The notes under the pieces were generated by a model. That model ran no database searches. It saw only the letters and a program-made list of their open reading frames with translations, and was not told where the DNA came from. A stretch of DNA of 57,955 bases, filler included, from Basidioascus undulatus (lineage: Eukaryota), in the NCBI GenBank assembly GCA_000826855.1. It is 4 parts of 4 records of this genome, joined end to end, with 100 filler letters (N's around TTAATTAATTAA, not from the genome) between each part and the next. Parts side by side here need not be neighbours in the genome. Positions count along the whole stretch, not along the records: positions 29,035 to 43,445 come from JTLS01000734.1; 3 more parts are not named here. One strand, given 5' to 3'. Position 1 is the first letter of the stretch. Each line of letters begins with the position of its first letter. A program made the translations under genes and the position numbers. Shown piece by piece: positions 15,859-40,024 of the stretch.

Positions 15859-16667
15859 ATGGCCACCGCGATGCTCCCCCAAGCAGGCGGATTTGACTTC
15901 TCAAACTACCACCGGTCCGTCCCTGGCCTTCCCTTGGCCTCCCCTCCTCGGAACTGATCTCTCCCTGGATGCGAGGACAGCAACGCCGCCCTTTCCGCGT
16001 CTTCTTCCTCTGTGGCCCTCCCCAAGGCCACCTCCACCGGTACCACCATCGTCGGATGCATTTACAAGGACGGCGTCGTCCTGGGCGCGGTGCGTCGCGT
16101 GCTGGAAGGAAGGATGGGAAGGGTGGGCGCTGATGGGGAGGGTTGGATGAACAGGACACGAGGGCGACGGAGGGACCTATTGTGGCGGATAAGAAGTGCG
16201 TGTTGAACTCTCTTATTCCAATTCCTTATCCCTTTACTAAACCCCACCCGATCTAGCTGCGAGAAGGTACCCCTGCCCAGTTTCCCTGCCTTCCTCTCCA
16301 AGCTCACCCTTCTCCTCCCCCTCAGATCCACTACCTAACCGACAACATCCGCTGCTGCGGCGCGGGCACGGCGGCGGACACGGAGTTCACGACCGCGCTG
16401 ATCTCCTCCAACCTGGAGCTGCACTCGCTCTCCACGGGCCGCCCTGCGCGCGTCGCGACGGCGATGACGATGCTCAAGCAGATGCTCTTCCGCCACCAGG
16501 GGCACATCGGCGCCGCCCTCGTCCTCGGCGGCATCGACCCCACCGGACCGCACCTCTTCACTGTTGCCCCCCACGGCTCGACCGACAAGCTACCGTATGT
16601 TACGATGGGCTCTGGCAGTCTCGCGGCGATGGCGGTGTTTGAGGCGAGCTGGAAGCCGGGGATGACG
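15859..16667 (+). CDS. PUP1: 20S proteasome subunit beta2 (C-terminal exons missing here)
   Basis: [11 protein letters not shown]...[13 protein letters not shown]...[26 protein letters not shown]...[14 protein letters not shown]...[20 protein letters not shown]...[25 protein letters not shown]. Includes a 10 nt micro-exon near 16257-16267. Confidence 0.95.
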
Positions 16668-16926
16668 GTGCGTTATTCTCCGCCCGTGTTCATTCCGCAT
16701 CCTTCCCGTTCTCTCCCTCTCTCCCCTCCCCGTCTTCCTTTCCCCTTGCTCCTCCCCTTTTCTCTTGCCCTCCTTCTCCTTCTTTCTCTTCCTTGCCCCT
16801 TGCTCCTCCCCTTTTCCCCCGCCCACACTTCTCCGCAGTCTCAAACTACCCAAGTATACTTCAACAATGGCGGCAAGCAAAAAAGGCAAAAGCACAGCAG
16901 GCTGCAGTGAATGCTGAGGCAACGAT

Positions 16927-34770: not shown

Positions 34771-36042
34771 GTAGCGGCTCGTCTCCTTTAGATTATAATA
34801 TATATACGGGAATTGGGTGTCTGATTTCAGTGCGTGCGTTCTGCCGCTTGGCCATCCTTTGCAACAGGGGACACAAGGTTGTGCTGCGTCCAGGGGCAGC
34901 TGCGCACATGGTTCTCTACTGTAGGTAGGTCAAGTTGCTCTTCTGGGAATATGCCTTTTCAAACTACTATATGTTGAATCAGCGACACCTCGAGGGTGGT
35001 CGGCTAGATAACTCAAGCATTGAGAGAAGGGAGGGTGCTGGCGAAGCACATATACAGACAGTATACCTGTACGCGTCATCCAAGCCACTAAGACTTGAGG
35101 TCGATACCGTACAGATTATATTGGACACAGCAAAGATTGAAGAGCTGGGAACGTGTTGCATCCCTATTATGGACACTGTGGGAATGAATGTCCAAGTCGG
35201 TGATGCCTTCACGGACACGATGCAGTACTCAAATATCCCCAAACGGTCTTCTTTTCCTAATGTATGCTCTTGACTGCCCTTAACCGAGGTTGGCCGCCAG
35301 CGTTGCCAGACGGACCTGCCTGCTGCCCAAGTGCAGTCGATCCCCGGCCCCGTCCTTCTAACTTACCAGCCCTATTTCACTTTGTGCGAGTTTTCACAAC
35401 CGAAAATTCTGGGATCAACGAACGCGCAAGTGGACCAGGAAGAGACGCCGCGTGCAATCTGTCCGTCGGTTCGGCAGTCCGCGGCGCTGGCAACGTTCAT
35501 TTTGCGCAATGCTGCTCGCCGCGGCCACGCAGGCGCAGGGCCACGCCAGGGCCTGCGTCCGGCTTCGCGCCGGACTCCGGTGGTCCCTGGCTTAAGTCTT
35601 TATTTTTGGGTGAAACACGGCATGAGAGGACGGGAACAGATTTTGAAGAGGTTGGGATTCCGGGAGGTTTCTGAGGAGGAGAAGGGGACGGTCCAAGGAC
35701 GGTCAGTCGCTGTGCTTGCTTGAGTCTGACCCCACAGCTTCCGCCTCGCTCCATAGCCTATGGACATGAATGACTGTAATCAACTCCTCGGAGCACCTCG
35801 CTCATCTCCGTTGATACGCATCACGGTGCTCCAACATTGGAGCACTGAATACGCTTTCGGACTCACAACTCAGCGCGGGCCGAAAGCCGGATTGCGCTGG
35901 ATCCCCAAACGACGTCACTTGGGAGCGGCGAGCGGCAATCCGCTGGCTTCTCGCTTCGTGCCCCTGTCCCTTTTCTCAACACCACCACCACCACCAACCA
36001 CACTTCCTCCCGCATACTTACCATCTGAACAGCGTTACGATC

Positions 36043-38740
36043 ATGTCCGTTTCGTCCCAGCCTACTGAGCGCCGCAGCTCCCGCCGCGCGTCTATCGACC
36101 CGGACAGGCTCCTCCCCATGGTCCGTGGTCGTCTTCTCCCCCGAAGAGAACTGGGATGCTAAATTTGTGCTGGTGCGGGGAACAGCACAAGTGAGTTTCA
36201 TGGATGTGTAGATGGCGATGGAGGGAGGTGCGGAGGGTTGAGGAGGGAAGAGGGTGCTGATGTGCGGTGCGTGGACGATAGGATCGAGCCGCAGCCGGGT
36301 CCGGACTTCAACGTGTGCGTCTCGTTCCAGTCTCCCTAAATCATGAAGTGGAACGGTAGAGTCTAACGCTGGTGTTGCGGCGTGCGTGCAGTATGATCAT
36401 CGGTGCAGATGCGTATTCCCTCTCTCCGCCCTACCCCGTGCTGCTCGACTAACACCCCCCTCCTCCTCCACGCAACATCAACTTCGGTTCCGACGAGGGT
36501 GTATGTCCCCTTTCCTCTCCCCGACCCCTGTTCTTGCCCGCTGACACGTCAACCCATCCTACAGCCTTGGAACCACTCGCAGCGCCTCGAGCGCAAGTGG
36601 GGCACGCGCCTCAAGGTCGTCGCCCTCGTCGACCCCTCCACCGCACGCGCGAACCTCGAGCTCGACAAGAAGCGCAAGAGCTTCGTCGCGCCCGCGTACC
36701 AGGACACTGCTCGTGAGTACCTCCCTCTCCCACCCCATTCAAAGAAGGCGCCTGATCCCCTCTCGCTCTCGACACGCCGCAGACTACAAGACGATCCAGG
36801 AAGCCGTCGAGCGTATGGACGAGGACGAGAAGCCGCACGCGATCATCATAGGTGCGCCCGCGCAGTTCCGCGGGGGGACTCAGCCCGGTAGGGACCTCGA
36901 GCTGCAGCTGCTCGAGCACTTCCCCGGCTCGGCCCTCTTCGTCGAGAAGCCCGTCGCGACGGGCCCGAAGGAGGAGACGATCGCGGAGGCGAAGGAGGTC
37001 GGGCGCCGCATAGCGCAGGCGGGGACGATTACGAGCGTCGGTGAGTTGTGGGGAGAGGAGGGCAGAGGAGAGGAGAGATTCTGAGATGGTGTGGGATAGG
37101 GTACATGCTTCGGTACTCGAAGGCCGTGCAGACTATGAAGCGCATCTTGGAGGACAACGAGCTCGAGGTCATGGTGCGCCGGTCTCTTCTTTCTCTCCTC
37201 CCTGTCCCTCCGCTTATGTTCGACCTTCCTCCGCCAGGCCACCACCGCCCAGTACATCTGCGCGTACGAGAAGATCGCGTGCGTCCTTACCTCCCTCCCA
37301 CTTTCGCTCTCTCCATCCTTCCATTTGCGGACTTGTTAGGCTAACGTTCGTATTGGCTACAGCAAGGAGGACTGGTGGGACAAGGCGCGCACGCTCGGGC
37401 CGATCATCGAGCAAGCCACGCACTTCGCCGACCTGAGGTACGTTCTTCCTCTCCTCCCCCTCCTGCCTCTCCTCCCGCTCCTCTCCCACCTCCCTCTTCC
37501 CTCGCCTCTCCTCCGCATTCCTAACCCCCTTGCCCCCCTCACAGCCGCTATTTCGGCGGTGACGTCGACCTCGCCTCCGTGCAAGCCTCCGCGCTCGAGT
37601 GGAACGAGAAGCCGGGCAAGCTGCGCAAGGTCCCCATCGACGAGGGGAAGATCCCGCCCGAGCAGCGCATCCCGCGTGCGACGTCCGCGACGTGGAAGTA
37701 TGAGTCTGGCGCGGTCGGCAGCTTGACGCATGCGGTCGCGCTGCAGGGGACGGATTATTATACGACGTTGACTGTTTGTGCGTTGCTGCGTTGCTGCGTT
37801 GCTGCGTTCCTGTCCCCTTCTGGTGTGTTTGCGGGCGCGGGAGACTGAATAGGCGGGGGTGCGTTGGGTACTTTTGCGGGGACGCAGACGCCGACGGGTA
37901 CCAGCTCCGCCTTGTGGACCCGTACAACGACCCGCACCTCTACGTCCGCCGCCCGGGCTCGGATAGCGAGTGCGTCGATGTTTCCTCTCTCCCTTCCTTT
38001 CTTGACCCACTTCACCCTTCCCTTCGACCTCGTTTTCGTGTCCCCTCTGTCCTTGCCCCCTTCCCCTTCCCTTTCCCCTGTTCCCCGTACCCTTCCCCCC
38101 TTCTGCCCTTTTGTTTCCCTTCACCCTCCCTTCCTTTTCGCCTTCGGCTTTGCCTTGTCCCTTCCCCCTTGCTTGCGCTTCCCCGACCCTCTCCCTTCGT
38201 CCACTTTTTCACCCTTTTCCCATGTGTCCTCCCCTTGCCGAGGCCATATACTGACGACAGTCCCCGCTGCGACCAACAGGGAGATCCACCGCTTCCACGA
38301 CGACGACCCCTTCTTCAGCGAGATCTCCAACTTCGGCGACCTCAGTACGTCCCCTCGCTCCCCCCTCCCCCCGCCTCCCTCCCTCCCCTCCTTTTCTTTC
38401 CTCCTCTCCATATGGCCCCCCCTCTCCATACCAGCCAGACTACTGACTGACATCGCCCGACAGTCGAGTCCACCGCGTCGTCCCGCGACGCGATCGGCGT
38501 GAGCGAGGAGGACACCAAGATCCTTTCGTCGTACGAGGACGCCGTCAAGACGTACGAGTTTACGTGGGCCATCGTGCGTTCCCTTATTTCTCCCTCTTCC
38601 CTCCCCTCTACCCTCCCCTTCCCTCTCCCCTTCCGCATTCCGGCGCTTGTTTGAGGAACGTTACTGACGAGCGGATGGGGACGGGGTTTGTGTAGCGCGA
38701 CGCTAGCGAGCGCAGCAGGAAGAAGCCGGCGCAGGAGTGA
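36043..38740 (+). CDS. Gfo/Idh/MocA-type NAD(P)-binding oxidoreductase (fungal YMR315W-like family)
   Basis: Spliced: FNVMIIGAGNINFGSDEGPWNHSQRLE...ALFVEKPV...VGYMLRY...WWDK...GPIIEQATHFADLSRYFGGDVD...RIPRATSATWKYESGAVGSLTH...DGYQLRLVDPY...DDDPFFSE...ILSSYEDAVKTYEFTWAIR. Confidence 0.92.
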
Positions 38741-40024
38741 GCGCGAGAGGCGAGAGTTGGGGGAGAAGAAAAGAATGGAGAGAGGGAGAACGGGACATAG
38801 ATGTGAAATGCTTGATGTTTCTTGATGAAATGCTTGACGAGACTTTGAAGAGGTGTGGTCTGTGGGCAGGTTTGGCTTGCGTGTAAGGGAGGCTGTCGAG
38901 TTTGTGGGAGTGGGTGAAAATTTTCAAGGGGTGCTGATCGTCGAATAAGAGAGTCAGCGGAGCTGTGGAAATGATGCGAAGAGTTTACGAATAGTTTTAG
39001 TCCGTTGTTCGCGGCGCCTAGGCGAGGGCGTCCAACCTTCAAGGCGGTGCGGTCTGCGAGCGAGGAAGGGTTCGCCCCTCGCGCCTCGCACGCAAGAGGC
39101 AGGACGCCTGCCGCTGTAAACAGGAATGAGTCTTTGCACCCGATGGAGCGTTTTGAAAACGGTATGCGATACTTCGAGGTGCTCTTTCACCTTTTCGCCG
39201 CCAAGTTCGGCAGCACGGCCTTCCTTTTGCTGCTTGCGAGCGCAGGACGACGAAGGCAGATCATATCCTGGGAGTCCCTTGTTAACGAATTCACATGGTA
39301 GTATAGGGCTGTGTCAAGGACGAATGGGCTTCTTGGATTTTCTCCTATTGGCACAGTATTGGCGAGCCGCGAGCGACTCGCTGGGAACCACTCGTCTGAG
39401 CCTCGTCATCCAGAAACGACAAATCGTTGGCCTCGCTTCTTCGTTAGGTTAGAAACGCGTGGTCGATTGCTGGGTCGTCGCCGCCAAAGAAGCCTCGGTT
39501 CTCCGGTGTGCATTCAGCTCGCCGCCTCTTGCTCCTTACGCCCACCCAGTCCCTCACAGACCAACTCCCACTGCAGATCCTCCCTTCTCCTCTTCCGACT
39601 TGCGCCTAATATCCCGTCCTTCCCTCCATCTGCTCTCCACTCGTCACATCCAGCCCTGACACTTATCCTACCCGAGAGGACATCGAGGCGATGGAGTCCG
39701 TCAACAGGGTGAGCACATCTCCGGGATAAGCAAGCTGCGTTAGAGCGCAATGACCCATTTTTGGCTCTTTCCCGTTGCTTTCGAGATTGTACCCCGGCCT
39801 GTCCATCGCTCTCCACCTCGGCCCCAGCGCCCTACCTTCTGTTGAGCCTTCGGCCTCGACACAAGCGAGCATGGACTGCCTTTTCTGGGCACGAAGCCGA
39901 CCACTGATGCCGGGGCGTCCCTTAGGTGTCCCCGTCGAACAGCGTTTCGCCCGCCTCTTTCACTCTCCCATCCCACCTCCCCGCGGCGTTGCACAAGGTG
40001 AACTCCTTGTCGGTGGGAGTACGT

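Follow-up and report, generated by a model that had tools for sequence, protein, structure and literature searches.

An AT-AC intron, probably of the U2-dependent kind, in the glycine loop of a Gfo/Idh/MocA-type oxidoreductase gene of Basidioascus undulatus

The closest described counterparts of the intron presented here are the U2-dependent AT-AC introns ('AT-AC type II'), which have been demonstrated in the human genes SCN4A and SCN5A (PMC1557818). The survey of Sheth et al. counted 15 U2-type AT-AC introns in human, 6 in mouse and 3 in fly, and it names fungal xylanase genes as hypothesised cases (PMC1557818). What marks an AT-AC intron as U2-type in that survey is a donor that, its ends aside, fits the U2 type well, and U12-type donors were searched for by ATCC at positions +3 to +6 (Sheth et al. 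2006, PMC1557818). As described by Turunen et al., U12-type introns have no distinct pyrimidine tract, and the optimal distance between their branch site and the 3' splice site is 11-13 nt (PMC3584512). Work in yeast and human, cited by Sheth et al. as their references 52-54, found that a G-to-A change of the first intron base is rescued by a G-to-C change of the last (PMC1557818). For fungi, Frey and Pucker report that AT-AC introns are rare in annotations (PMC7072748); 13 of them (0.014%) are reported for Ganoderma lingzhi, one confirmed by RT-PCR and Sanger sequencing (PMC11590231), and long-read gene models of Coprinopsis include an AT-AC subtype (PMC12230235).

Here we describe a 63-nt AT-AC intron from the basidiomycete Basidioascus undulatus, located in what we call the window - the whole stretch of DNA analysed, 57,955 nucleotides long with the filler between its four parts. 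We consider it a genuine spliceosomal intron of the U2-dependent kind, and put the probability of this reading at roughly 0.88. The initial annotation of this DNA had overstated its novelty, since such introns are documented, basidiomycetes included, in the sources cited above (PMC1557818, PMC11590231).

The oxidoreductase gene and its spliced contig

The gene that houses the intron (Table 1) is densely divided, with 12 introns in about 2.3 kb and, towards its 5' end, exons of 5, 17, 29 and 33 nt; the surrounding window DNA is GC-rich (49-67% in 2-kb bins) and holds many short introns. The exon lengths given by the splice joints are 78, 5, 33, 17, 29, 148, 258, 74, 41, 75, 233 and 82 nt, and from the ATG at 36043 the spliced exons form an open frame without a stop. 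Two exons carry the domain matches: PF01408, the Gfo/Idh/MocA Rossmann fold, on 36785-37039 (E 6.8e-09), and PF08635 on 37546-37776 (E 2.6e-34). Homologues, found by searching with two exons, have both domains, and usually PF22725 too. About 9-12 kb from the Gfo/Idh/MocA gene by window position, a myo-inositol oxygenase gene (PF05153; 46777-47985, minus strand) adjoins an aldo/keto reductase gene (PF00248; 49539-50024, minus strand), and these may be neighbours in inositol or glucuronate catabolism.

Table 1. Features of the AT-AC intron and of the gene around it, in window positions
Feature	Position	Strand	Description
Gfo/Idh/MocA-type oxidoreductase gene	36043..38303	+	ATG at 36043 to the end of spliced-contig cover; the gene's 3' end lies further on
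Micro-exon CACAA	36186-36190		5 nt, between introns 36121-36185 and 36191-36281; intact in the X3 contig
Upstream GT-AG intron	36315..36391	+	77 nt; GTGCGT ... CTAAC ... CAG
Exon, 17 nt	36392..36408	+	its letters stand within joint 36314>36472 of the X3 contig
AT-AC intron	36409..36471	+	63 nt; phase 1, within a Gly codon of GAGN; from the sequence and the X3 contig joint 36408 to 36472
5' splice site ATGCGT	36409..36414	+	preceded by exon end CAG; equals GTGCGT with A at +1
Putative branch site GACTAAC	36447..36453	+	branch A 36452, 19 nt before the intron end; predicted from the sequence
Polypyrimidine tract	36455..36469	+	15/15 C/T
3' terminal AC	36470..36471	+	from the sequence and the X3 contig
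Exon, 29 nt	36472..36500	+	joints 36314>36472 and 36500>36565
Downstream GT-AG intron	36501..36564	+	64 nt; GTATGT ... CTGAC ... CAG

Inspection of the 63 nt bears out everything that the initial annotation had stated about their letters. They start with ATGCGT and close with CCAC, following an exon that ends in GGTGCAG (last base 36408) and preceding one that begins with GCAAC at 36472; CTAAC stands at 36449-36453 and is followed by a run of 15 pyrimidines. No AG occurs within them, the first one downstream of 36409 being at 36496, and the unspliced frame from the ATG at 36393 meets an in-frame TAA at 36450-36452. Taken alone, the AT-AC pattern has no significance: ATGCGT, CTAAC and YAC at the same spacings give one match against 0.20 expected, and at least one match arises in 17 of 100 shuffles. 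A pattern so unremarkable by itself leaves the case to depend on its context and on RNA.

Three contig sets were compared over 35900-38900, namely X1 (study P1, 2014) and the two sets X2 and X3 from one sample (study P2, 2025). The kind of all three was guessed as 'DNA?', and X3 contains 0.27 of the words. Record 17 of X3 (1073 nt, depth 167.4) spans 36067-37969 piecewise and lacks every one of the gene's 12 introns, crossing them at ten listed joints: 36120>36282 (with CACAA between), 36314>36472 (with 17 letters between), 36500>36565, 36712>36783, 37039>37099, 37172>37237, 37278>37363, 37435>37543, 37777>37888 and 37969>38280. The stretch of 17 letters matches 36392-36408 exactly, so that 36314 meets 36392 and 36408 meets 36472. 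At this last junction zero letters fit both sides, and the borders of the intron are therefore fixed: the 63 nt are removed exactly at their AT and AC ends, as had been proposed from the sequence. The other 11 introns have GT..AG ends once the named cut shifts are applied to their joints.

Other ways of cutting the transcript were rejected. Alternative splice pairs find no AG before 36496, and the X3 contig fixes the borders anyway; moving the borders by one base would turn the ends into GA..CA or TG..CG and alter an invariant Gly; and the GT at 36403 is without an in-frame AG partner. Three further joints (36960>37409, 36960>37545 and 37435>37545) were disregarded, their sides being 23-24 nt long and lying on CT-rich repeats from other loci. 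The introns 37970-38279 and 37438-37544 are long, CT-rich and of low complexity, and they attract contig pieces of 23-36 nt from other loci, which gives rise to spurious joints.

The two remaining sets speak for the DNA. Record 1 of X1 (36007-37050) and record 8 of X2 (36007-38900) are colinear with the window and show 0 other letters, keeping both AT and AC, so that A36409 and C36471 - the two bases singled out for confirmation by the initial annotation - are present in DNA contigs, which may be the window's own source and are then not independent of it.

Could the joined form nevertheless be an artefact, be it a processed copy without introns in the DNA, a chimeric assembly or a jump of reverse transcriptase, with the gene itself a pseudogene broken at the GxG loop? 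X3 is not recorded as RNA, and the spliced form comes from one contig of one sample, a kind of record that hides rare forms. However, no splice joint occurs in the X1 and X2 contigs over 35900-38900, which argues against a DNA copy lacking introns; X2 was made from the same sample as X3. Record 17 of X3 skips all 12 introns, 11 of them GT-AG, and keeps the exons of 5 and 17 nt intact. The two AT-AC junctions share no sequence (no repeat, no microhomology), which argues against template switching or a reverse-transcriptase jump. The spliced frame, moreover, is open and matches the orthologues along its length, in agreement with the earlier view of an otherwise intact gene. We therefore regard an artefact as very improbable; judging by its missing introns, X3 behaves as cDNA and is, we infer, derived from RNA, and a genuine intron excised from the transcript is the reading that we retain.

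The glycine loop and its orthologues

The GxG glycine loop (GAGN) at the start of the Rossmann domain exists in the spliced reading only. PF01408 begins six residues before GAGN in two homologues (P0043 and P0027), where the motif takes profile positions 7-10, and the intron thus splits the nucleotide-binding glycine loop, in phase 1 of its second Gly codon. When the spliced translation was aligned by script with 97 homologues (360-530 aa), GAGN was contiguous in nearly all of them, and none of the 97 carries an insertion between GA and GN; the motif is missing from 15 of the rows, which are truncated or faulty models together with three variant motifs. In an alignment of 32 orthologous sequences the G, A, G and N are invariant. 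The placement of the intron inside the Rossmann GxG, and the restoration of the motif by its excision, had both been recognised at the outset and stand.

Several public models of the orthologues are themselves faulty at this place. Two skip 20 residues after GA (P0017, P0050), three skip 12 residues around the GAGN loop (P0019, P0028, P0045) and two run into non-coding sequence around it (P0053, P0055); the sources of the seven are Tilletia horrida, Phenoliferia, Meredithblackwellia, Sporobolomyces salmonicolor and Rhodosporidiobolus nylandii. The form of these errors suggests that tiny exons or odd introns may lie near the loop in those genomes too. Predictors limited to GT-AG or GC-AG ends will likewise break the B. 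undulatus gene at its cofactor-binding loop and, as public models of orthologues are already faulty near tiny exons, the site is useful as a warning for annotation.

Splice signals and the spliceosome

Among the 11 GT-AG introns of the gene, four start with GTGCGT, three with GTGAGT, and one each with GTGCGC, GTCCGT, GTATGT and GTACGT. Across the window GTGCGT has 63 occurrences where 29.4 would be expected, and 0 of 100 shuffles attain 63. Being the commonest donor in the gene and enriched in the window, it makes ATGCGT the usual local donor with G changed to A at +1. Judged qualitatively against the donors of the same gene and window, the site is thus a good U2-type donor apart from its end. 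The rest of the intron reads in the same way, with an ordinary branch site and pyrimidine tract as far as sequence evidence goes. From the putative branch A to the 3' end there are 19 nt, and the gene's other introns with CTAAC, CTGAC or CTGAT have 18-27 nt. The initial description of a usual GTGCGT donor with G1>A and a U2-type CTAAC branch site is in keeping with these figures.

Two signals are stronger here than elsewhere in the gene. The AT-AC intron alone among the 12 follows an exon ending in CAG, and it has the best pyrimidine tract of them all, with 14 pyrimidines out of 15 from -18 to -4. The CAG exon end and the best tract may be compensation by the remaining signals, in analogy to the account that Sheth et al. 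give of GC-AG introns.

Is the minor spliceosome a credible agent? The classic minor class has AT-AC ends, the last letters of the branch motif are TAAC, and a little-sampled basidiomycete lineage might have kept a U12-type machinery, the more so as no close sequenced relative of the organism appears among the matches. The named fungal best matches of the oxidoreductase exon (120 listed) and those of the proteasome beta-2 exon 16323-16670 are all Basidiomycota; identities reach at most 90% (Wallemia hederae) and 89% (Pterulicium) for the proteasome exon and about 64% for the oxidoreductase protein. The top two proteasome beta-2 matches (P0128, P0129) are filed under a sturgeon, in a record that its source marks as UNVERIFIED_CONTAM, and under a marmot, at 78-80% identity. 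Minor introns were not found in Basidiomycota by the survey that addresses them, which reports them as absent there and allows for rare exceptions (PMC10639083). The signals themselves depart further from the minor class: positions +3 to +6 read GCGT, agreeing with ATCC at 0 of 4 places; there is a 15-nt pyrimidine tract; and the branch distance is 19 nt, not 11-13. Rfam snRNA matches number 0 in the window, a count that says little in 58 kb. A U12-type intron is, on this evidence, hardly to be expected.

With the U2-dependent reading, the major spliceosome would recognise the intron by a donor that is in other respects an ordinary local one, exon CAG followed by ATGCGT, and would use the yeast-like branch site GACTAAC with the long pyrimidine tract. 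In the non-Watson-Crick contact made by the two terminal bases of an intron, its first A and its last C would then stand in for the G and G that are usual there. We infer the spliceosome type, the branch point and this A-C contact from the signals above. The protein requires excision, which rejoins the Gly codon that the intron splits in the nucleotide-binding GAGN loop, and translation of a transcript retaining the intron would stop at a TAA 14 codons into it.

The initial annotation added that the splice might be rate-limiting; in a fuller form of this idea, the AT-AC ends would make it slow or regulated, and it would determine how much enzyme is made. In the yeast and human tests cited by Sheth et al. 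(2006), A-C ends splice less efficiently than G-G ends (PMC1557818), and retention would lead to a premature stop. Against this, the spliced contig is unbroken through the site and the intron interior is without X3 cover: the bin 36405-36505 has a depth of 48.1, which is what 29 of its 101 bases at depth 167.4 would yield by calculation. This gives heavy retention no support and proves nothing, as contigs cannot quantify splicing and the points against a brake are accordingly not decisive. The intron also has the strongest auxiliary signals of the gene, and this resembles a compensation in favour of efficiency more than a brake. A rate-limiting role is in our view unlikely.

Origin of the intron and its place among known AT-AC introns

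The comparison of intron positions in orthologues that the initial annotation had proposed was run on metagenome contigs. They yielded 76 loci, 72 of which cover the motif and are contiguous through it in one frame (59 + 13); the other four (L045, L051, L060, L065) end short of it. None of the 72 orthologous loci is interrupted at the AT-AC position by an intron of any form, GT-AG included. As none of these loci is close to the window (best identity 66.7%), it follows that the position is not widely shared, and nothing more. At least 21 of the loci are genomic, their frame breaking right after the Phe-Gly that follows the motif, where an intron probably lies. Its position differs from those of both window introns and precedes the one at 36501 by 12 nt; intron sliding or an independent gain could be behind the difference from the latter. 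The genomic orthologues with this Phe-Gly frame break are apparently Agaricomycotina (L028, L029, L037, L042, L043, L046, L050, L052-L059, L061, L066, L067, L069, L071).

A search for copies of the intron elsewhere in the window returned low-complexity matches of 9-14 nt, and no repeated, introner-like element. Perhaps this poorly sampled lineage of basidiomycetes acquired the intron and both of its ends then switched together, or else it was AT-AC from birth, with the strong auxiliary signals keeping its splicing efficient. We offer this scenario tentatively, as a possibility on the unlikely side. If true, it would provide a natural, selectable case of co-variation between the two terminal bases of an intron, in a fungus that lacks the minor spliceosome, of use in tracing the origin of U2-type AT-AC introns.

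For the field at large there is no surprise in this. Knowledge of splicing is unchanged, the flanking signals look compensatory, and the variant is a rare but already documented one that ordinary splicing machinery can manage; on our reading, the short list that Dikarya have of U2-type AT-AC introns gains one natural case supported by a transcript.

How, then, does the intron stand beside its described relatives? With U12-type AT-AC introns, as characterised in PMC3584512, it has the terminal dinucleotides alone in common: donor, branch motif, distance from branch to 3' end and pyrimidine tract all differ. It has more in common with the animal type II introns, a very rare class that accounts for 0.003-0.008% of introns in the surveyed animals (PMC1557818). 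Like those of human SCN4A and SCN5A and of human and fly TAF2 in that account, the window intron combines AT-AC ends with a donor whose remainder is of the local U2 type, and with an ordinary branch site and tract. It differs from them in being fungal and 63 nt long, and in that its dependence on the major spliceosome is read from its signals. Several of the animal introns are reported as conserved between species, in contrast to a position found in 0 of 72 orthologous loci here. The engineered double mutants of yeast and human offer the same terminal base pair on an otherwise U2-type intron; those were made in the laboratory and are described as spliced with reduced efficiency, whereas the window intron is natural and apparently well spliced. 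As to Ganoderma lingzhi, the account consulted assigns its AT-AC introns no spliceosome type (PMC11590231). Lineage and gene are different, the confirmed intron there belonging to a gene with a DNA polymerase zinc-finger domain, but both fungi are basidiomycetes with AT-AC ends, and in both the gene model fails if the non-canonical intron is not recognised (PMC11590231).
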